A stretch of DNA of 64,000 nucleotides from an uncultured delta proteobacterium (GTDB lineage: Bacteria; Myxococcota_A; Polyangia; Polyangiales; Polyangiaceae), in the NCBI GenBank assembly GCA_963696385.1, contig CAVOKF010000004.1, positions 960,001 through 1,024,000 on the forward strand. Reading direction: 5' to 3'. Below, one piece after another: positions 55,594 through 64,000 of this stretch (positions within the stretch are counted from its first letter, which is position 1; each line of letters opens with the position of its first letter). The position numbers were made by a program, and so were the translations under genes. The notes beneath the pieces were generated by a model that ran no database searches, was not told the origin of the DNA, and saw only the letters and a list, made by a program, of their open reading frames with translations.

Positions 55594-57060
55594 CTATTGC
55601 GAGGGCTCGCCGCCGATACCGTGTTTCTTCATCAGGCGATACAGGGCGAACCGATTCGCGACGCCCAGAGCGCGCGCTGCCTTTCCGACGCTCCCACCGA
55701 CCGCAGCGAGTGCGGATCGGATATCGTCGGCCGAAGGCTCCACCACGACACGCGTTGGCGTGGCCGGGGTGGCGGCCGTCCCCGCGGGAGGCTGGCTCGG
55801 CCCCTCACCCGGGGCGACGATTTCGCTGCCGGTCGCTTTCGAGATGCCCTTCCAGAGCAGCGCCTCGAGTTGCCGAGTGTTGGCCGGCAACGGCTGTCGC
55901 AGGACGTAATCGATGAAGCTCGGCGCGAAGCAGGCATCGGGCCGCCCCGCCGAGTCGCGGGCGACGAAGCGACCGGCTACCTCGGGACTTTGCTGGGCCG
56001 CGCGCACGAGCAAGTGCCGAGCGAGCAAGGCAATGTCTTCGCGCCGGGATGCCAGCGGGCTCAACTCGACGAGCGACGCGAGCCGAGCGAGCACGTCGTG
56101 CTTGAGCGTCGAAGGGTCGCGGTTGGTCGCTCCGATCAGGCGAAAGTTCGAACGGCGCGTCGTCGCTTCGCCCAGGCGCTGGTATTCGCCTCCGCTGTCG
56201 AGCACCCGAAGCAGGTGCGCCTGTTGTTCGGCGGGCAGCTCTCCGATTTCGTCGAGAAAGAGCGTCCCGCCGTCCGCCTGGCCGATGAGGCCGGGCCGCT
56301 CGGGCAGCCCCGCGTTCGGATAGTTTCGCGCGCTCCCAAAGAGCTCCGCATCGACGAGACCAGGCGGCAACGTGGCGGCGTTGCGCGCCACGAACGCTCT
56401 CGAGGCGCGCGCCGATAGGCCGTGAATGGCGCGCGCGGCAAGCTCCTTGCCCGTTCCGCTCTCGCCGACGAGAAGCGCGTGGGTCGCCGATTTGGCGACG
56501 AAAGCGAGCCGTTCACGCAGATGCCAGGTCGCCGGCGATTCTCCCAGAATGCCGTGAGCATCCGGCTCGCCGAAGTCGCCCCAGGAGTCCCTCGGAAAGT
56601 AGCGACCCATCGGAATCAACGCCGCTCGTCGCGTGCAGAGAAGCAGGATTTGACGGCGCAGGTACATCGTGTCGCCGGGACGAACGAAGGCCCTCTCGCA
56701 CGGAAGGCCGTTGACTCGCAGCTCGCACCGGCCCACACTCTCGACGACCAAGCCGTCGCCCTGCGCGGTGAGCACGAGCTGCCGACGCGACAGCCCGGCT
56801 CCGGCGAGCCCGGGGCCCGACCCCAGGGCGCCCGGTCGTTGGCGGCAGAAGCGTAGCCGCGCCTCGTCGGTATCGCCTTCCCCGCGGCCGAGCACCTGCG
56901 GGGGCCCGGAGGGCAGGATCACCGCGACTTCGCCGACGCGATGCGGCTCCTCCGCGGACCATGCCAGAGCAAGCACGGTAACCTGGCCGGGGTCTGCGCC
57001 TTCGCCGCCAGGCCCCGAGCGCATATCGCTGGAAACGGGAAGAGTGGTGACACCAGGCAT
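55594..57060 (-). CDS. Sigma54-type enhancer-binding AAA+ protein (FHA-like N-terminus, Fis-like HTH) lacking GAFTGA
   Basis: GESGTGKEL, ELFG, GGTLFLDEIGEL, ATNRD, P.NTRQL; loop 1 reads SARNYPNAG. Confidence 0.88.
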   Translation of the reverse strand: MPGVTTLPVSSDMRSGPGGEGADPGQVTVLALAWSAEEPHRVGEVAVILPSGPPQVLGRGEGDTDEARLRFCRQRPGALGSGPGLAGAGLSRRQLVLTAQGDGLVVESVGRCELRVNGLPCERAFVRPGDTMYLRRQILLLCTRRAALIPMGRYFPRDSWGDFGEPDAHGILGESPATWHLRERLAFVAKSATHALLVGESGTGKELAARAIHGLSARASRAFVARNAATLPPGLVDAELFGSARNYPNAGLPERPGLIGQADGGTLFLDEIGELPAEQQAHLLRVLDSGGEYQRLGEATTRRSNFRLIGATNRDPSTLKHDVLARLASLVELSPLASRREDIALLARHLLVRAAQQSPEVAGRFVARDSAGRPDACFAPSFIDYVLRQPLPANTRQLEALLWKGISKATGSEIVAPGEGPSQPPAGTAATPATPTRVVVEPSADDIRSALAAVGGSVGKAARALGVANRFALYRLMKKHGIGGEPSQ

Positions 57061-57417: not shown

Positions 57418-57819
57418 GTGCGTGCACGCACGCCCGCACGTGCGAGCCGTTCGATCGCACGGTTGCCCGACGCAGATTTCCCGGTGTTTCCGCGCGATCG
57501 ACGGACCGGAGCGATTGGCCCCGACCTTGAGATGGCCGTCCTCGAAGGCGCGAACGGCGCCGGGAGGACAATCATGGGAAAAGCCTTGGTCTTTGTGGGG
57601 ACAACCGCGATGGGTTTGGGGGGTGCGCCACCGCCTTGCGAGTTCCCGCGCCGCCCGTTCATCCGGACGCCGAGGCCGGCTTCGCGGCGGGGTTTGGATG
57701 CACGGTAGAAGAAGCGCCGCGCATCGTGGCCCACCGGGTCGATCGCTCCGCCGGACTCGTCGCCGAAGCCGACGACTCGCGCGTGTGGCTGCACTTCTCG
57801 ATGGATCGTGGCGCGAAGC
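57418..57819 (+). pseudogene. Duplicated promoter and 5' part of the 53150 lipoprotein gene, frameshifted and truncated next to the IS
   Basis: Aligns with ~52993-53402 (gtgcgtgcacgcacgcccgcacgtgcg ... atggatcgtggcgcgaagc). Confidence 0.9.
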
Positions 57820-57944
57820 AAATTGACTCTGAACCGGTGGCGTGGGCAAGGGTTTTCGCGCAGAGAGTTTTCTTTTTTTCGTTTCGGAGTGAGCTGGGTT
57901 CTTAGAATTCAATGGACGTTTCCCTTCTCGGCGCTTGAGGGCGC

Positions 57945-58125
57945 CGGAGCACGGTGACAGTAAGGGGAGCGCTCCGAACGCGCGGCTTGGCGAGCTACCT
58001 CTCGATTGACTCTTCACGTGCATCGGGCAGCGAAGTTCGCGTCCAAGGCCCGAGACGTAGATTTGGATTCGAAGCGGTGGAACGAGACGCAATTTTTCGC
58101 ACGAAGTACAGTCACGTCTCCACCG
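57945..58125 (-). ncRNA. Predicted bridge/seekRNA (target-binding and donor-binding loops)
   Basis: Guide-like matches at 58092-58100, 58061-58067 and 58005-58013, enclosed by stems GAGACGU/ACGUCUC and GCACG-UGA/UCA-C-CGUGC; RNA boundaries inferred. Confidence 0.65.
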
Positions 58126-58232
58126 GAGCGGAGATCGCAAGAGCTTCTACCAATTTGTCGCGTTCAACGTTCCTCCAGATGGGGTGCTCTTAGGCTACGC
58201 GCTCAAGGCGCATCGGAGACGGTCGTGACGAT

Positions 58233-59384
58233 TCATGTCATGGCGACGTCCTCCGAAATCTTGTTGCGGCGAGGAGCCCGCCGTTGGAGTTTCTTGGCGG
58301 AGCGTTCGAGCGCCTCCGCATTCGCGTTTTTCGAACGAGCCTCTCTGCGAGTGCCCTTTGCGCTCGCCTTGGCCTGTCCCACCGGATCGTAAGCGGTGCC
58401 GTCGCGCCACATCGCCCAGAGGACGCCGGCGAGTTTTCGTGCGATGGCGATGGCGGCGATTCTCTTGCCTCGCGTCTTGGCGATGCGGTCGCCCCACTGG
58501 CGAATCGGGTCGTCCATGTCGCGTGACCTGAGGATGAGCCACGCCGCTTGGACGAGCATTTTTCTCGCATACGTGTTGCCCTGCTTGGTGATCGAGCCCA
58601 GGCGCCGCTTTTCAGGTCCGCCTGTCGTCAACTCCGACGGCACCAAACCAAGGTACGCTCCGACTGCCTGCGCATTGCGAAAGCGCTTCGCCTCGTCGAT
58701 CACCGAAACGAAGGTGGACGCCACGATAAGGCCGACGCCAGGAGCGGTGGCGAGAAGTTTCGTGATGGGCTCACGCATCGCCATCTCCGAAAGCGTCCGT
58801 TCGACCTGGGTGAGCTCTTCTTCGACTCCGACGAGCACGGCAAGGAGCGGCGCGATGAGCGTGCTCGTCGCGTCGTCGAGCGAGCTCTCGCGAACCTTGT
58901 TCACAAAGTTCTCGGTTGTGCATGTGGGAAGGAGCACGCCTGCCGCGCGCCCGAGCCCGCGTATCGTCGTCACATACTGCGCACGTGTTTCGACCAGCGC
59001 GCCGCGCACGCTCAACTGCGCGCGCAGGGCTCGGCGGGCGGGAGACAGAATGTGCGCCTCGGGGATCCGTCCTTGGTCTACGGCACGTGCGGCCGCCTCA
59101 GCATCGAGAGCATCGTTTTTGCGCTTGTGATGCGCGACGCCCATCGCACGCACCCGCGTCGTATCGATCATCTTCGCATCGTGCCCCCACGACGTGAGGG
59201 TATCGTGCACGTGCCATCCTTCACGCGACGCATCAAACGCAATCCGCGCAGGTGGACAGTCGGGGCCGATTCGCGACTTGAGTTGGTCCAGCCTCTTCAC
59301 AGAGGTCCGATCGATGACCTCTCCGTTCCGTATCTCGCAATACGCAATGTGGCGCGCTCCAAGATCCAATCCTATGCTCCGCAT
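58233..59384 (-). CDS. IS110-family DEDD recombinase/transposase
   Basis: IGLDLG, KNDALDA, PGVG, AYLGLVP, ITKQGN..AR..LV..AW, AIARKLA..LWAMWRDG. Confidence 0.95.
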   Translation of the reverse strand: MRSIGLDLGARHIAYCEIRNGEVIDRTSVKRLDQLKSRIGPDCPPARIAFDASREGWHVHDTLTSWGHDAKMIDTTRVRAMGVAHHKRKNDALDAEAAARAVDQGRIPEAHILSPARRALRAQLSVRGALVETRAQYVTTIRGLGRAAGVLLPTCTTENFVNKVRESSLDDATSTLIAPLLAVLVGVEEELTQVERTLSEMAMREPITKLLATAPGVGLIVASTFVSVIDEAKRFRNAQAVGAYLGLVPSELTTGGPEKRRLGSITKQGNTYARKMLVQAAWLILRSRDMDDPIRQWGDRIAKTRGKRIAAIAIARKLAGVLWAMWRDGTAYDPVGQAKASAKGTRREARSKNANAEALERSAKKLQRRAPRRNKISEDVAMT

Positions 59385-59598
59385 GATCGATCTCCCTTCG
59401 GCCCCCACTTCGCTTTGTGCCTTTGAGCACGCCGGGGTGTCGGATGGATAATCCAGCGGGAGGTCGGTCGCTATTTTCGATGACCGACGACCGGCACGGG
59501 GGCTGCTCTCGAGACGCCCCGCGATCGATCTCGAGGCTGCGGCACCCGTGCCGCGCGGCGTGCCTGGCGGTCCAGGACGCGCCGCCACCGGTTCATCT

Positions 59599-59705
59599 AA
59601 TCTTTCGCCGATTCAGTGATAACGAACGCCCCTAAGACGCGATATGTTTCCGCGCCCGCTTCCGCGGCTCTTCGTTGACCGATACCCTTTCGACTGGCTA
59701 CTCGC
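59599..59705 (-). repeat. ~110-bp repeat, copy 1 (cut by the IS at its AT core)
   Basis: Reverse complement aligns closely with 63129-63234. Confidence 0.9.
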
Positions 59706-59719
59706 TCGGGGGCAGGAAC

Positions 59720-60718
59720 ATGCTCGGACATACTCGTCTCGCCGGGTTTACTCTCTGTAGCGTTGGCATCCTGGCCTGCGGCACCCATTCGGGTACCCGC
59801 GATGCGGGCGCGGCTTGCCAGACCGTCGGACCTCCTCCGACGTCGCAGCTCCCACACGTAACCGTCTCCGGCGCGACTGCGATGGCGATTCTGCAGGCCC
59901 TGGACGCGATATGCGCGTCGCAGACGCCGCCAGTATCGCCGGGCGCGGCCTATTCGCTTCCGAGCCTCGATTGCAGCGATATTGCCGTGCCCGGAGACTC
60001 CGGGTTCGAGTGTCTGCTCGCGCTTGGAGCCGACGGTGGCTCGCAGATTGACGTGAGCGACATCACGGCATCCGCCGCGGGGGCCACGGACGCGGGCGAG
60101 GACACCGACGCGGGCGGAACCATGCTCGCGCAGAACCTGTTCAATGCGCTCGCGGCGACGGTGTCCATGCCCTGCGTCGATCCGCATGGCGTGCATGTGC
60201 AGCTTCAGAACGTGTCGGTGACCGCAAGTGGAATCCAGTTCGACGACGCCTCGAACTACGCAACCTTTGAGGCGCCGAATATTCAGGTTCGCGGGCCTGA
60301 CGCGCAAAGTCTCATCAGCGCGTTCGCCGCCGCGGGGCTCGACGACTGCGACCCGACGCGCAACCTCTTCATCGTCTGCAATACCCAGGGCGGCGCTCCG
60401 GGCTGCGGTCACGAATGGATGACCCTTGCGACCGTGGGCGCGTCCATATTGGAGCCGGCCTGCGGTCCGGGCGGGGGCACGCAGGCCGAACCGCCGTTTG
60501 ATGCCCCGACGTCGCTCGCGATCTGGAACGCCATCATAAAGGCCGCCTCCGACGCCGGGTTTCAGCCGATGAACGGCACTATCGCGCAAACCACCGTCAT
60601 CAACGCCGACTATTTTACGTGGGACGGCACGACCCTGGCCTTCTTGCTCGTTGCCGACGACCCCACTCTGCCGCCCTCGCCCCCGGGCTTCGCCAGCGAC
60701 GGCGGCGCGGACGAATAG
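59720..60718 (+). CDS. Cys-containing hypothetical lipoprotein
   Basis: ILAC lipobox, about 10 Cys, agga RBS. Confidence 0.7.
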   Translation: MLGHTRLAGFTLCSVGILACGTHSGTRDAGAACQTVGPPPTSQLPHVTVSGATAMAILQALDAICASQTPPVSPGAAYSLPSLDCSDIAVPGDSGFECLLALGADGGSQIDVSDITASAAGATDAGEDTDAGGTMLAQNLFNALAATVSMPCVDPHGVHVQLQNVSVTASGIQFDDASNYATFEAPNIQVRGPDAQSLISAFAAAGLDDCDPTRNLFIVCNTQGGAPGCGHEWMTLATVGASILEPACGPGGGTQAEPPFDAPTSLAIWNAIIKAASDAGFQPMNGTIAQTTVINADYFTWDGTTLAFLLVADDPTLPPSPPGFASDGGADE

Positions 60719-60826
60719 CGACCGCCAGCACGTGCGATGAAATTCACATCGCGACGAGCGCGGCTCCGGTACAGGCCATAGGGATCACGAGGAGGGGTTG
60801 CGAGTCCATTATAGATATACAACTAG

Positions 60827-61310
60827 CCCCAACCCGACAATGTTGAGGCGAGTCTAACTGACAAAAGAAGACTGGAAGGGCGGTTTCGTGCGTGCTTTGT
60901 TTCGAGTTGCGAGAAACGAAACGTCACGACGAAAGGCCACTTCCAGTGCGGATAGGAAAGCGCGGCTTTGAGGCTCGGGTCAAGGGCGACTTGACCCTCC
61001 GTTTCGGACACGAGAGGCTCACGTCGCACGCGGGACTGGAGTTGGTCCGCCGGTTTCTTGCAAAGGGTCGGCTTGTTCGGCGCCCTTCGCGAGAGCGAGG
61101 GCAAACTCGCCGTGGGCGGGGACTTCTCCTTCGGTAGGTGGTGCTCGCGGTGGTGGCGATGCTGCTCGTCGGCGCGAAGCGACTGAGACACCTGGCCTTC
61201 CTCGGCAGCGACCCGCTCTTTTTGCGATTCGCCGGTATGTCGCGAGCTCCGACGGAGCGTTCCCTCGGTCGAGCGTTGACGAGGATGGGATGGCGCACGG
61301 CGAATAGGTG
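60827..61310 (+). mobile_element. IS1380-like transposase remnant (5' part, frameshifted); left end approximate
   Basis: ERLTSHAGLELV, LLVGAKRLRHL..L.SDPLFLRFAGM...P.ERSL.R motifs split over two frames. Confidence 0.7.
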
Positions 61311-61330
61311 AAGCAAAGCCTGGCGGACGA

Positions 61331-61424
61331 CGAAGAGCCGCGGAAACCACCGCGGTCCCATATAACGCCTTTGGGGCGAGTCCGTTGTCACTGCAACAGC
61401 GAACCGATTTGGCTACTCGCCAGC
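61331..61424 (+). repeat. Repeat copy 2 (diverged, 5'-truncated)
   Basis: gaagagccgcggaaaccaccgcgg...ccgttgtcac...gatttggctactcgcc. Confidence 0.8.
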
Positions 61425-61479
61425 GCTCTTGGGCGAATAACAGCCCCGTTCCTATGCGAACAACGCCCGCCTTTGTCCC

Positions 61480-62673
61480 TCACTGGTTGCCTGCGGCCAG
61501 CGCCGCGATTTCAGCACCGGACAGAGCTCGTGAATACCACCGGATTTCGTCCAGGTCCCCAGCGAAGTACGTATCATCATACGCAGCTCGGGACGCATTG
61601 TGGGCAAAGCACAGCGAGCCGTTGTTGTTTGAGATGTCCCCCGACGCTACTTGAGAGGCATCAAAAAGCCCGTCAATGTAGATGTTCTCGTTGGCGCCGT
61701 CGTAAGTTGCGGCAACATAGTGCCAGGTATTGAATGACAACGCAGTGGCGGAGATGAGGTTGGCTCCTGGACTCGTCAACTCAAACAAGTAAAAGACAAT
61801 TTTGCCGTTGGCGTTGATCCCTGTGAACTTATCTTCAAGCCCGTTGACCCACTTATTAATGAGGATTGTATTATCAGCAGAGGGGGCTGCCGGGATGTTG
61901 ATCCAGAACGCGATCGTGTAACCGGCCGCCAGGTTCAGCGTGGTGGACGTGGGTATCAAGACGTCCCCGGTCGTGCCGTTGAATGAGAACGCTTGCCCGA
62001 ATTTCCCGGTCACGAACGTGACGCCTCCATCGCCACCCTGGAGGGTCCCATTGTTCGGGCCCACGCTGTCGTTCGCGTTCCCTTCGCCATGCCACAAGCT
62101 GACGAGGCCCTGGGTCAGGGTATCGGCGTCGGCTGCATCCCCGTCCCCGGCTTCGCTATCTGGCTCCTCGATGACGTCCGGGTATGGTGCACAACAATCG
62201 AGTGCATCCGGCTCGACGTCCGGTACCGTCCCGTCCTCAGCGTCTGGTTCTGCGTCCTGTACCGTCCCATCCTTGGCGTCTGGTTCCGCGTCCGCTTCCA
62301 CGTCTGGTTGAGCGTCCGAGACAGTTGCATCCTTGCCCCCGTCCCCGGCGTCCAGTTCACTCGAGGACGAGCTTGAAGTGCTCGTCGAGCTTGAACTCGA
62401 ACCATCGGATGCGTCCGGCTCGGATCCGTCAGACGCGTCGACGGATCCGTCGGACGCGTCCGTGCCCGCGTCCAATTCACTCGAAGACGAGCTTGAAGTG
62501 CTCGACGATGTTGAGCTCGAGGATGGTTCGCTTGAGCTTGAAGAGCTCTCGGGGGAAGCGTCGGACGGCCCCGTCGAAGAGCTTCCACAAGCGGACAGAG
62601 CCGCAAAATGTCCGGTTACGACCGCAAATGCGCCGATTCTGAACCACTCTCGCTTCAAGACATACCTCCGCAT
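61480..62673 (-). CDS. Lipoprotein with Ser/Asp-rich linker and C-terminal LamG (concanavalin-like) domain
   Basis: LSAC lipobox; repeated SSSSSELDAG; GLVSLWHGEGNANDS, WHYVAATYDG, FAGDLDEIRWYSRALS. Confidence 0.85.
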   Translation of the reverse strand: MRRYVLKREWFRIGAFAVVTGHFAALSACGSSSTGPSDASPESSSSSSEPSSSSTSSSTSSSSSSELDAGTDASDGSVDASDGSEPDASDGSSSSSTSTSSSSSSELDAGDGGKDATVSDAQPDVEADAEPDAKDGTVQDAEPDAEDGTVPDVEPDALDCCAPYPDVIEEPDSEAGDGDAADADTLTQGLVSLWHGEGNANDSVGPNNGTLQGGDGGVTFVTGKFGQAFSFNGTTGDVLIPTSTTLNLAAGYTIAFWINIPAAPSADNTILINKWVNGLEDKFTGINANGKIVFYLFELTSPGANLISATALSFNTWHYVAATYDGANENIYIDGLFDASQVASGDISNNNGSLCFAHNASRAAYDDTYFAGDLDEIRWYSRALSGAEIAALAAGNQ

Positions 62674-62955
62674 TCATCGACGTGGAGAGCCGACAGTGGT
62701 GCCAAGAGGCGCACAAAGTGGACCAAGCTCGAGTGGCACGCGCTGCAACAAAAAGTTCAACAGGCTCGGATAAATCATGCCAACTCAGCTTTGACACGGT
62801 CTGGGAGAGGATCTGGAAGAGCTCCTAATGTGGCACGCGAAGCTACATGTGGCGCATGGCGCTACTTTGTGGCTTCGCGTACCACACACGTAGGTGGCGC
62901 GGCAGTGTCCGGTCTCAGGTGCTTGATCGGCTCCCTCCGCGCCTGTACTTCGGGC

Positions 62956-63162
62956 ATGAACCCGTTTCGTGCGCTTCCCGACGACGCCCCGGCCACCATC
63001 CCCGCGCCACCGCCGTCCGAGGCTCTGTGCAGCCATTCTGGACCGATCGCCTCGATCCGGACTTGCGTGGTCTGCGGCAAGCCCATCAAGGGCCGCGCGG
63101 AAAAACGGTCGTGCTCTGGCCGTTGCCGGCGAGTAGCCAGTCGAAAGGGTATCGGTCAATGA
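62956..63162 (+). CDS. Small Zn-ribbon protein (CxxC...CSxxCR)
   Basis: CVVCGKPI..RAEKRSCSGRCR; its 3' end overlaps repeat copy 3. Confidence 0.5.
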   Translation: MNPFRALPDDAPATIPAPPPSEALCSHSGPIASIRTCVVCGKPIKGRAEKRSCSGRCRRVASRKGIGQ

Positions 63163-63246
63163 AGAGCCGCGGAAGCCACCGCGGAAACATATCGCGTCTT
63201 AGGGGCTTCCGTTGTCACCGAGCGGCGAAAGATTTGGCCAGCCCGG
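63126..63246 (+). repeat. Repeat copy 3 (intact, contains an empty IS target)
   Basis: ggcgagtagccagtcgaaagggtatcggtcaa...catatcgcgtcttagggg...gttgtcac...gcgaaagatttggcc. Confidence 0.9.
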
Positions 63247-63301
63247 GACGCGAACGCGCGGGCGCTTGATCTTTCCCTCAACGGGTCCGATGCTAGCCGC
63301 C

Positions 63302-63502
63302 ATGACTGGCAGCCCAGTTCCGTCGTATGAGCACGAGGACTCACCCGAGGTGGCGGCCCTGCGTAAGCGCATCCGTGGCGAGCCGCTCTCAGCGGCGGAA
63401 GACGCCCTCCTCGCGTCCGCGACGCGCAAGCCGTCCGGGCCCGGTGTACTGCACGCCGAGGTGATGGCCGAGCTCGCCGAGCGCGAACGCCGCGGCGAAT
63501 GA
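63302..63502 (+). CDS. Putative antitoxin
   Basis: 66 aa, C-terminal GVLHAEVMAEL, ATGA overlap with the next ORF. Confidence 0.5.
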   Translation: MTGSPVPSYEHEDSPEVAALRKRIRGEPLSAAEDALLASATRKPSGPGVLHAEVMAELAERERRGE

Positions 63503-63717
63503 TTGTAGTTTGGGACGAGTCCGCCCTCGAGAGCTGGCGCCGCTTGTCGCTGAGCGATGCGAGGGCGGTCGCCGAGGCTGTCGAGCGATGGGCGCAGACG
63601 GGACAGGGTCTCGTCGTAGCCGTCGACGGGGAGTTCCAGCTCTTCGTCGGTCAACACGTCGTCGTGATGCTCGTGGCCCGCGATACGCTCTACATCGACC
63701 GCGTGCGCCGGGCTTAG
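63499..63717 (+). CDS. Putative RelE/ParE-like toxin
   Basis: 72 aa; IVVWDESALESWRRL...AVERWA..G...FQLFVG.HVVV...TLYI.RV pattern. Confidence 0.5.
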   Translation: MIVVWDESALESWRRLSLSDARAVAEAVERWAQTGQGLVVAVDGEFQLFVGQHVVVMLVARDTLYIDRVRRA

Positions 63718-64000
63718 GCCCTCAGCAGCTCCGGGGGAGCCCTGCCGCCATCCGCCGGAAGCAGTATCGGCTTCGTGAATGGTCAGTCGGCGTGTCTCAG
63801 CGCGTCCAACTTCCGCTCGGAGGCTCGCGCCGAATCGCGTTGATCAGTCGCCCGGCGAGGCGAAACGGGCGGCCCGAGCTGCTGCCCATTACGCTTGAAG
63901 GATGTGGTGCGAGCGATCCGCGCGGCGGTGCCCATGGCGCGCGGTTCGTGCAGGAGGCATCGCCGTCCTCTTGGCACTCGTTGCCTTGGCTGTTTCCGGC

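Follow-up and report, generated by a model that had tools for sequence, protein, structure and literature searches.

Much gene capture, that of resistance and virulence genes among it, is attributed to rolling-circle insertion sequences (ISs) of the IS91/ISCR group. To our knowledge, the ends and non-autonomous derivatives of these elements are poorly defined beyond a few proteobacterial examples. As described in PMC13181058, members of the IS91 family have no terminal inverted repeats (TIRs), produce no target-site duplication (TSD), and are guided by a tetranucleotide; short mini-ISs composed of ter and ori are mobilized in trans. In Pseudomonas syringae pv. phaseolicola, right-end miniatures of IS801 are 229, 360, or 679 nt long, are bounded by a tetranucleotide, and are reported to account for 26% of events (PMC3189936; Bardaji et al. 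2011).

The IS1111 family is described in PMC11187229 as possessing a DEDD transposase, subterminal inverted repeats (sTIRs) of 11-13 bp, and a long non-coding region (NCR) downstream of tnp, and as inserting site-specifically without generating a TSD. Targets named in that source include the inverted repeats of the Tn21 family (IS4321/IS5075), attC sites (the IS1111-attC group), and REPs (ISPa11).

The window analyzed here is a 64,000-nt stretch of contig C4 in the genome of an uncultured soil myxobacterium of the Polyangiaceae (window coordinates are C4 coordinates minus 960000). It contains three copies of a ~110-nt repeat, placed by three rounds of nhmmer (Table 1). The best explanation, to which we give a probability of roughly 0.78, is that this repeat is the cognate 3' end-module of IS-B, an IS91/ISCR-like rolling-circle (Y2 HUH) element, and that it is present here mostly as solo copies.

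Table 1. Features of the repeat-bearing region, in window coordinates.
Feature	Position	Strand	Basis or remark
Displaced tail end of copy 1, last 7 nt (CAATTTG)	57820-57826	minus	Far side of IS-A, right-end junction
IS-A, IS110 family, IS1111-type	57827-59604	minus	Copy boundaries, ±5 nt by GATT repeat assignment
Candidate seekRNA guide region	58059-58103	minus	IS-A downstream NCR, sequence match
IS-A transposase gene, 383 aa	58236-59384	minus	Pfam DEDD_Tnp_IS110 and Transposase_20
Copy 1, solo end-module	59598-59705	minus	nhmmer, model 2-108, E 3e-28; head at 59705
Putative lipoprotein cargo gene	59720-60718	plus	ORF; lipobox ILAC read from translation
Two short ORFs, different frames	60892-61308	plus	Cut off at copy 2 head
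Copy 2, solo end-module, diverged subfamily	61299-61411	plus	nhmmer, model 1-109, E 1.6e-23
Inverted head fragment, 10 nt	61412-61421	minus	Immediately after copy 2 tail
Laminin_G_3/concanavalin-like putative lipoprotein cargo gene	61480-62673	minus	Pfam PF13385, E 9.5e-24
Small Zn-ribbon ORF	62956-63162	plus	ORF; last 34 nt and stop codon inside copy 3
Copy 3, solo end-module	63128-63236	plus	nhmmer; variant tail GGCGAAAGATTTG

Copies 1 and 3 form the inverted repeat that the initial annotation had described, with 93-nt arms (59613-59705 and 63129-63221) that are 91% complementary and 3423 nt apart. Copy 1 is interrupted by an IS110-family element, as was also stated there; its tail is split, with the last bases lying beyond the IS. 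Reading of the junction places the true module at 59605-59705, and the bases from 59598/59599 to 59604 belong to the start of the inserted IS, although the HMM aligned them as tail. The existence of copy 2 was recognized correctly, but the range given for it, 61331-61424, missed the first 32 nt and added 10-13 nt foreign to the copy. Copy 2 is 99% identical to a copy at C4:1027309, past the window end. Copy 3 keeps its variant tail, as originally reported, and we read this tail as an IS-A site that is either unoccupied or vacated. The tail-side flank of copy 3, a TA-like gene pair, is duplicated beside another module at C6:107811 (99.3% identity over 300 nt).

Throughout the 6.9-Mb genome, the three nhmmer rounds returned 92 family matches, 39 of which are full length, amounting to ~0.13% of the DNA. 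Their number, sharp ends, and unrelated flanks are far beyond chance. The repeat is a discrete, multi-copy, non-coding element of mobile type, as first proposed, and not merely a local duplication. The family consensus starts with GGCGAGTAG and ends with CCGATTTG. A purine precedes the head in 60/64 cases, and the tetranucleotide flanking the tail is degenerate, G-R-N-N (N-N-Y-C on the other strand), with G in 39 and R in 41 of the 43 distinct tail flanks. The family contains mosaic subfamilies with 1-2-nt indels. Identical copies are found at several loci, suggesting recent spread. Approximately nine in ten copies are solo and have no transposase gene; the three in the window are among them.

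Family copies cluster in IS-rich accessory regions. The repeat explains why assemblies break in these regions, and the genome contigs do break at modules. The modules lie at joints between unrelated DNA blocks, and homology stops exactly at the module ends. Against insertion of solos as units, no paralogous empty site was found, all six collinear flank pairs still hold the element, and in three comparisons of filled and unfilled head-side junctions the interrupted sequence is not taken up again past the tail. The stop codons of the repeat itself explain the many small ORFs that end in it.

Two familiar classes of dispersed repeat were rejected. The initial annotation had inferred a new MITE or a cassette-recombination site, and neither a TSD nor a linked recombinase was found. 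No TIR was present among 64 heads and 38 tails, and the 5' and 3' flanks were unmatched in the 31 copies with both ends; a DDE-type MITE is excluded by this lack of a family TIR or fixed-length target duplication. The TIR initially reported is unique to copy 2. It corresponds to the 11-nt direct repeat TGGCTACTCGC (61410-61420), which is made up of the last tail bases of copy 2 and the inverted head fragment, and which is also observed at the head of copy 1 (59695-59705). No other joint of a tail to an inverted head occurs in the genome, and the family ends differ. A REP/RAYT system or an IS200/IS605-derived PATE was also rejected: PF01797 (Y1_Tnp) had no match in the 96%-complete genome, and the control matched in 6/14 genomes.

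The IS-B transposase has eight matches in the genome, two of them full length and open. It scores above cut-off for Pfam Y2_Tnp and Zn_Tnp_IS91. Its best NCBIfam match is ISCR clade Ia (282.8 bits, strict cut-off 925), and it reaches 97 bits against the IS91 equivalog (cut-off 125), indicating a distinct clade. As IS91/ISCR elements are described, they share with IS-B a Y2 HUH transposase with a Zn-binding N-terminus, non-identical ends, tetranucleotide-guided cleavage, and the absence of a TSD. Their short-ended mini-IS, which works in trans, and the one-ended capture that mobilizes adjacent DNA can be likened to IS-B and its module. In contrast, the flanking tetranucleotide is NNYC here and CTTG/GTTC in the described elements, and in the IS-B lineage a conserved G.TC precedes the 110-nt module.

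Within this genome, the ori-side termini of IS-B adjoin a module in 7/7 cases. Seventeen IS-B-type loci were compared, two from this genome and 15 from 12 congeners (52-100% amino acid identity). In all 17, what comes after the stop codon is GTGCGC(C)TTGGA..G.TC and then AA(A/T)T.GG, ~110 nt of module, CTAC.C.CC, and unrelated flank. This G.TC separates the module from the conserved block next to the transposase. End motifs are at least 80% conserved in the 13/17 loci that could be anchored and aligned, and module length is 110-111 nt in 5/9 relatives fitted by regular expression. The module therefore accompanies the IS-B transposase lineage across genomes with its length and end motifs conserved.

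Cognate modules also occupy extra sites in four other genomes: one in G008 and three each in G012, G006, and G044, with five further modules of a 76% subfamily in G006. These have the same two boundaries, a degenerate flanking tetranucleotide, and mostly no transposase alongside. On the transposase-sense strand, the extra copies in G006, G008, and G012 are preceded by GCTC, ACTC, GACC, AACC, ATCC, or GGCC. Counting against the link to IS-B, another genome, G003, has at least 20 modules and no IS-B match at E<=1e-40, although its assembly is in 330 contigs. The position 3' of the transposase in 17/17 relatives, together with the extra sites in four genomes, points to the repeat as a cognate rolling-circle IS end-module with an identifiable parent family. 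The view of the initial annotation that the element is new and unnamed is therefore not supported.

The module could instead be an independent, dispersed, MITE-like element of other parentage that is merely a preferred target of IS-B, whose own end would be the conserved ...TTTGGAT.T followed by a GTTC target. The sense-strand junction of IS-B, ...GGAT.T, GTTC, AAATCGG, reads as a canonical ori followed by GTTC, and the canonical IS91 rule (oriIS, then target tetranucleotide) would place the IS terminus before the module. Moreover, IS-B copies that are 98-99% identical adjoin modules that are 80-91% identical, the module being the less similar in 14/15 pairs, and IS-B adjoins modules of several subfamilies. 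Solos have a sharp inner boundary that falls exactly where IS-B joins the module, and they do not keep GTTC there. Landing of IS-B by pre-existing modules, or recombination between modules, fits this discordance better than simple co-inheritance. The module head has no significant similarity to the ori-proximal 150 nt of IS-B (16-248 of 300 shuffles score equally). An independent origin is nevertheless improbable. A module-like block follows the transposase in every relative down to 52% amino acid identity, co-diverging with it, and a mere target is not expected to track a transposase between species. Cognate solos were also present in 4/4 other genomes checked. A hybrid account absorbs most of this alternative: the module would be the recognition site of the transposase, and hence a partner to it as well as a landing pad.

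The initial annotation also considered that gene cassettes might be bounded by a site for site-specific recombination, whether attC-like, dif/Xer-like, or of another tyrosine recombinase. Such a site is very unlikely, even with the exact breaks in homology at module ends, the cassette-like cargo (TA pairs, small enzymes), 32 genomic matches to tyrosine recombinases, and a same-orientation run at 1.6-2.6-kb spacing (C4:1021299, 1023128, 1025696, and 1027309). Orientation within clusters is mixed, head and tail are not complementary, and the whole-module DNA fold is not above shuffles (z -1.4 / -1.1), with no overall hairpin or imperfect palindrome and no consistent covariation across copies. 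No recombinase is systematically adjacent among 80 annotated neighboring proteins, and the module is tied physically and evolutionarily to a Y2 HUH transposase. The core-site motifs of attC are RYYYAAC/GTTRRRY. These were looked for by eye only, and an integron attC was rejected on complementarity, fold (z -1.4), mixed orientation, and the lack of an integrase among the same 80 proteins. The proposed 11-6-11 core proved to be where an IS4-family element inserts and makes its 10-bp duplication, and no recombinase is consistently linked to the module; a dif/Xer site was likewise rejected on these grounds. The ccgcgg..ccgcgg motif noted in the interior is present, but neither its conservation nor its compensation is consistent from copy to copy. 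As candidates for the subterminal palindromes of IS91/ISCR-type ends, stems of 3-4 bp precede the tail, some with compensated variants, and clearer hairpins are observed in the modules of some relatives (GGTTGTCACG...CGTGACAG in L051/L059/L072).

A duplicated structured RNA gene or regulatory element (sRNA, riboswitch-like leader, terminator, or promoter module) would account for the mostly intergenic location, where 37/46 near-full copies overlap called genes by no more than 30 nt, and for the gene that starts 15 nt outside the copy 1 head. This is hardly credible, as no module match was found in Rfam at E<=10 (two chance hits fell elsewhere in the region), the fold is no better than shuffles, orientation is unbiased towards neighboring genes, and subfamilies are mosaic with small indels.

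If the repeat is the end-module of IS-B, the solos would be non-autonomous mini rolling-circle units, or one-ended or abortive products of cleavage at the internal G.TC that is conserved. The IS-B transposase may mobilize them in trans, as IS801 makes and moves its right-end miniatures. Because the transposase would recognize solos, they may also serve as a landing place for IS-B itself. They could further act as breakpoints where neighboring genes are acquired or exchanged.

The IS801 miniatures appear to be the closest precedent. As described in PMC3189936, they too are a transposase-distal end of an IS91-family element, free of transposase, with no TSD or TIR and with a tetranucleotide at the inner border that is related to the cleavage/target site of the family. 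They are moved in trans and are tied to accessory genes and recombination joints, traits that solo modules share, their mobility being presumed. Unlike these miniatures, the module is one precise ~110-nt unit with length and ends conserved over the whole transposase lineage, and it is amplified to ~90 copies. The miniatures keep an internal tetranucleotide, whereas that at the inner border of the module varies (G-R-N-N) and is not inherited.

A bolder reading is possible, although we consider it unlikely. A Polyangiaceae-genus clade of IS91/ISCR-like elements would have a detachable, precisely bounded ~110-nt module that transposes itself, acts as a homing site for its transposase-bearing partner, and seeds 'cassette' arrays by one-ended transposition. 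Module and IS-B origins would stand back-to-back and share a single tetranucleotide. The module would then be a safe harbor exploited by at least five other mobile elements, one of them an IS1111-type element whose guiding seekRNA is programmed against the module tail. If true, this would be integron-like gene shuffling by an HUH nuclease rather than a recombinase. A fixed-length end module in a whole lineage, with solos in at least five genomes, is in any case clean natural material for what a Y2 HUH transposase recognizes and where it cuts (the conserved junction of G.TC and AAAT.GG). The solo ends are also material for how accessory-gene mosaics are built.

The element in copy 1, IS-A, has the features of the IS1111 family: a DEDD transposase (NCBIfam NF033542, 'IS110 family RNA-guided transposase', 216.9 bits, cut-off 140), a perfect 13-bp sTIR TGAACCGGTGGCG, non-coding regions of 216 nt upstream and 414 nt downstream, and site-specific insertion without a TSD. 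Its left termini adjoin the module tail at one fixed position in 6/6 copies, which bears out the view that the repeat is a landing site for an RNA-guided IS. Right termini are followed by tail remnants resembling (T)CCGATTTG in 11/12 cases genome-wide. Like its described relatives, IS-A enters one point in a repeated mobile-element end; that target, a rolling-circle IS end-module, was not found among those named for IS1111-family elements in the parts of PMC11187229 drawn on here. The terminal extensions are seemingly 8 and 4 nt (7 and 6 with the GATT core), compared with the usual 7 and 3.

A seekRNA guide pair is predicted in the downstream NCR of IS-A. The candidate guide GCGAAAAATT, read by eye from the right-end sequence, matches 9/10 positions of the target top strand GCGAAAGATT. 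Approximately 30 nt further on, CCAAATCT matches 8/8 positions on the bottom strand of AGATTTGG, which spans the insertion point. IS-A thus adds a naturally occurring example of an RNA-guided DEDD IS aimed at the end of another transposon, with a readable candidate guide.

That the repeat attracts IS insertions is strongly supported: besides IS-A (6/6) and the IS91-type element (7/7), IS-C (IS4-type) has 10/18 termini in modules, with a 10-bp TSD. IS-D (IS4-family) has 5/13 termini at modules, likewise with a 10-bp duplication, and both IS-C and IS-D enter at one register of the module. A group-II-intron-like insert lies at a module in 3/4 cases, and insert F in 5/7. IS-C and IS-D resemble IS4-family elements that land in short repeats. 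The 10 bp in mid-module, ATCGCGTCTT/ATAACCCGTT, match the target preference of both. Their insertions outside modules share a loose ..TA(A/G)..N8..T consensus, so that these elements prefer a target sequence and do not recognize the module itself. With a specific IS-A target in the tail and an IS4-type target in the middle, modules accumulate ISs.

The initial annotation had inferred that the repeat frames surface-protein cassettes, possibly invertible ones. Modules do lie at seams between unrelated DNA, but elsewhere in the genome the cargo beside them is composed of TA pairs, defense genes, and small enzymes, not surface proteins in particular. The lipoprotein gene beside copy 1 had no Pfam or NCBIfam match. 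The Laminin_G_3 product has Ser/Asp-rich repeats and internal repeats D2 and D4. The two short ORFs that end at copy 2 are possibly the N-terminal remnant of an IS1380-family transposase, as initially proposed; the match is weak (NCBIfam IS1380, E 4.8e-4, 18.9 bits, cut-off 180), Pfam returned nothing, and the genome contains no paralog. The Zn-ribbon ORF resembles DUF2116 weakly (E 7e-4, below cut-off), and its 3' end is supplied by the copy 3 module.

The three repeat copies in the window belong to a family of ~110-nt modules. The tests support their identification as solo end-modules, i.e., modules without a transposase gene beside them, of an IS91/ISCR-like rolling-circle element, which are unusually precise, abundant, and heavily colonised. 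Three nhmmer rounds over the whole genome (6.94 Mb, 8 contigs) yielded 92 matches, including 39 at full length, so the repeat seen in the initial annotation is confirmed in a family far bigger than its three copies. The inverted repeat described between copies 1 and 3 is also confirmed (93 nt, 91%, spacing 3423 nt). Copy 2 exists, but the range first assigned to it is displaced by ~30 nt relative to the nhmmer range.

Both module ends are sharp when the copies are aligned with 40-nt flanks. The head, or start, lies at (G/A)GCGAGTAG, and the tail, or end, at ...GGCGAACCGATTTG, with the variant tails GGCGAAAGATTTG and ...GCGCCGTCCCAATTG. Outside both ends, the flanks are unrelated between copies. 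Modules cluster throughout contig C2, at 38-81 kb and 1019-1161 kb of C4, at 1-130 kb of C6, and at both ends of C7. Tail-only fragments are also found, with GAACCGATTTG occurring 10 times outside the 92 matches vs. 1.3 expected. The 46 near-full modules have no orientation bias relative to neighbouring genes, and 37 of them overlap called genes by at most 30 nt. About seven upstream ORFs end in a TAG supplied by the module itself.

Features of the window and of related module sites. Bare coordinates are those of the window; those prefixed with C are contig coordinates of this genome (C4 coordinates minus 960000 give window coordinates).
Feature	Position	Strand	Remarks
Copy 1	59598-59705	(-)	nhmmer
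Copy 2	61299-61411	(+)	nhmmer
Copy 3	63128-63236	(+)	nhmmer
IS-A	~57827-59604	(-)	IS110-family RNA-guided transposase element; cuts copy 1
Putative lipoprotein gene	between heads of copies 1 and 3		start 15 nt from copy 1's head
IS1380-like remnant	ends abruptly at copy 2's head		weakly supported (NCBIfam)
Laminin_G_3 putative lipoprotein gene	between heads of copies 1 and 3, after copy 2		
Small Zn-ribbon ORF			lies between heads of copies 1 and 3; last 34 nt and stop codon come from copy 3
Cargo between modules	past window		TA-like pair; alpha/beta hydrolase; ParE-family gene beside small unassigned ORF; FMN reductase; Phd/YefM antitoxin gene
IS-C (IS4 family)	one register in module		10/18 termini at module; 10-bp duplication ATCGCGTCTT/ATAACCCGTT; NCBIfam 183 bits, cut-off 115
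IS-D (related to IS-C)	register as IS-C		5/13 at module
Group-II-intron-like insert	module position 92		3/4 at module
Insert F	module position 66		5/7 at module
Tandem-duplication modules	C2_74011, C2_103537, C4_46564, C4_81332, C6_60042, C7_1383982		
G003 locus L032	C7:1354703-1357110		stretch in this genome compared with the locus
G003 locus L033	C2:131497-132551		as above
G003 locus L039	C2:139331-142359		as above

The parent element, IS-B, encodes a protein of 567-585 aa (578-585 aa in the open copies) with Zn_Tnp_IS91 and Y2_Tnp (Pfam). In NCBIfam, it matches ISCR clade Ia best (283 bits, under that model's strict cut-off), and IS91 gives 97 bits vs. 125. IS-B starts directly after a module tail in 7 of 7 copies, with the sense-strand junction ...TTTGGAT.T/GTTC/AAATCGG. 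The family canon, as given in PMC13181058, is oriIS followed by GTTC, and because the junction matches this order, the module was first read as a mere target of IS-B. Against this stands a block of identical architecture 3' of the transposase stop codon in 17 of 17 loci. Two of these loci belong to this genome and the other 15 to 12 congeners; aa identity ranges over 52-100%. After the stop codon, each locus has GTGCGC(C)TTGGA..G.TC, AA(A/T)T.GG, ~110 nt, and ...CTAC.C.CC, followed by unrelated flank; on the opposite strand, this block is the module, read tail to head. Thirteen of the 17 loci were anchored and aligned, and the motifs stand at 80% or more there. Block length is 110-111 nt in 5/9 relatives, those where the regular expression fitted. 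Overall, 17 of 30 congeners have transposase relatives, a tally that takes in the unpublished genome G010, on which no other result rests. The initial annotation was right that the repeat is of a mobile type and is parasitised by an RNA-guided IS, and wrong that it has no known parent.

Cognate modules are also present at extra sites, away from the starting transposase locus and with the same two boundaries, in G008 (1), G012 (3), G006 (3, plus 5 of a 76% subfamily), and G044 (3). On the transposase-sense strand, the tetranucleotides before the inner border of the copies read in G006, G008, and G012 are GCTC/ACTC/GACC/AACC/ATCC/GGCC. The tail flank in this genome, G(39/43)-R(41/43)-N-N, is their mirror, and by these flank statistics the tail is the likelier end to be joined to a target tetranucleotide. 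IS801 offers the closest precedent, and for it PMC3189936 describes right-end fragments bounded by a tetranucleotide; fragments of 229, 360, and 679 nt made up 26% of the trapped transposition events (PMC3189936). The module sequence type of this genome is recognisable only here, in G003, in G044, and in one public Polyangiaceae MAG; the contig pattern scan, in which one other organism was found, used an exact 5'-half pattern that misses diverged subfamilies such as that of G044.

Within this genome, modules do not co-diverge with the adjoining IS-B. Copies of IS-B that are 98-99% identical sit beside modules that are only 80-91% identical, and the module is the less similar of the two in 14 of 15 pairs. 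Solos have no GTTC at the inner border. In the proposed mechanism, the module would be the cognate recognition and cleavage unit of the IS-B transposase. It could exist alone and probably move alone, and IS-B would land, or be recombined, beside it. This reading fits both the cross-genome linkage and the local discordance between module and IS-B.

A comparison of the module head region with the ori-proximal part of IS-B gave no significant similarity. Six collinear flank pairs all have the element still inside, and no paralogous empty site was found among them. Three repeats are cut exactly at a module head, with no continuation found past the tail; these sites are joints of the sort expected from one-ended rolling-circle events, adjacent deletions, or inter-module recombination. 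An IS21 istB fragment is cut by a module, and no nucleotide paralog was found for comparison. G003, a different species-level genome, has kilobase stretches 99.4-100% identical to this genome precisely in module-rich accessory regions, and one such stretch terminates exactly at a module head. It seems that module-rich mobile DNA has been exchanged between the two lineages very recently. The pair L033 and C2:132551 was rejected as a simple insertion, even though the divergence falls exactly at the head.

The palindromic architecture first proposed is not a feature of the family. The 64 heads and 38 tails checked for flank signal have neither terminal inverted repeats nor a target duplication; the sole signal is a purine just outside (60/64 heads, 37/38 tails). 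Terminal inverted repeats are seen only at copy 2, the sole such joint in the genome. There, TGGCTACTCGC, which lies at 59695-59705 in the head of copy 1, recurs at 61410-61420, where the tail of copy 2 contributes its final bases and a 10-nt inverted head fragment the rest. The two 11-nt direct repeats thus flank 59706-61409. Going by this single case, a unit with copy 2 at its end may have been joined into a minus-strand module head. Folded as single-stranded DNA, copy 3 scores no better than shuffled sequence on either strand (z -1.40 and -1.07), RNAalifold finds no consistent covarying helix among 42 unique copies, and in one copy the CCGCGG pair varies in the manner of a direct repeat. 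Rfam has no family for the module; a scan of 57500-64000 at E<=10 gave two chance hits elsewhere. The suggested tyrosine-recombinase core is likewise wrong. The genome has 32 tyrosine-recombinase and 4 resolvase matches and no Y1 HUH transposase. Across the 80 annotated proteins that neighbour modules, none of these recombinases or resolvases is systematically present.

IS-A carries Pfam DEDD_Tnp_IS110 and Transposase_20 and matches NCBIfam NF033542 at 216.9 bits vs. a cut-off of 140. All six left termini in the genome adjoin a module tail at the identical base, and the displaced remnant of the tail, (T)CCGATTTG, follows 11 of 12 right termini. The 13-bp subterminal inverted repeat of the element, TGAACCGGTGGCG, is perfect, and the non-coding region 3' of the transposase gene is 414 nt long; these two traits are described as IS1111-type hallmarks in PMC11187229. 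Within this region, CCAAATCT is complementary to AGATTTGG, which spans the insertion point, and GCGAAAAATT, ~30 nt upstream of CCAAATCT, is by eye 9/10 identical to the target top strand. The two form a plausible candidate seekRNA guide pair, matched post hoc. A bridge-RNA-style k-mer search of the upstream leader gave no match at the insertion point.

The IS-A junction allows two readings. IS-A may have entered at GGCGAA^CCGATTTG, in which case solo GGCGAAAGATTTG tails, copy 3 included, would be excision scars formed via two GATT repeats. Alternatively, GATT would be a common core and GGCGAAAGATTTG, as first proposed, the native empty target. Two modules (C4:1135637-1135719 and C6:110897-110975) are hybrid in their 3' part, where GGGGCGTCCACTGTCGGTTCAGAGTCCCATTTGG corresponds to the final ~25 nt of the IS-A right end; this suggests that an IS-A-like insertion was deleted internally or that both ends have a common ancestry.

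The description of the repeat as an IS magnet holds generally, with 6/6 left termini of IS-A, 7/7 copies of IS-B, and the IS-C, IS-D, and other insertions tabulated here. IS-C sites outside modules have a loose TA(A/G)-N8-T pattern in common, so its association with modules is read as a target-sequence preference. Six modules have a tandem duplication of ~10-12 bp at the IS4-type insertion register (11 bp in clean cases, ATCGCGTCTTA twice; the rest are close variants), and these look like excision scars of IS4-type elements. The modules at C2:79536, C7:1394722, and C7:1380611 are head-only stubs of ~25 nt, each followed by a related CAGG-starting sequence that is identical, CAGGCAAGGCTGGTCTGAAAGGAAT, in two of the three, pointing to a further insert type with a fixed module position. 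Those at C6:22243, C6:105676, C7:1370155, and C7:1434086 are cut at position 17 by one common sequence ending ...GCCCGGGGCTACTCG. It contains an inverted head-like CGAGTAG beside a GC-rich hairpin and may be another element with the same head motif.

Copies 1-3 are all solos, and the same-orientation run of modules extends past the window to C4:1025696 and 1027309. The tail-side flank of copy 3 is repeated beside another module on C6 (99.3% over 300 nt). At 63290-63717 (+), two small ORFs of 70 and 72 aa overlap stop to start at 63499 in a toxin-antitoxin-like layout. The pair has no Pfam or NCBIfam match and is duplicated at 99-100% identity at C6:107857-108674, beside another module. Just upstream of the IS-A/module cluster, a sigma-54 activator gene (AAA+ enhancer-binding protein, 488 aa; 55594-57060, (-)) marks the edge of ordinary chromosomal genes.

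The stretch is present in 20 public runs from 14 studies. The four runs examined are short-read contigs, all ending at modules, and no contig bridges any copy. Read depth, summed across all organisms in a sample, is ~25-30 times flank in the bins of copies 1 and 3 in run X1 and ~7-20 times in the other three runs; the bin of copy 2 is lower in all four. Opposite-strand joints at 59677/8-61328/9 have sides of 31-32 nt inside the repeat and are read as assembly-graph artefacts. The Laminin_G_3 gene contains direct repeats at 62204-62520 (-), of 56 nt (88%) and 36 nt (75%), which specify low-complexity repeats rich in Ser/Asp/Glu in the N-terminal portion of this putative lipoprotein. Contig variants from two runs skip 147 (one run) or go back 70 (two) in this region, hinting at length polymorphism.
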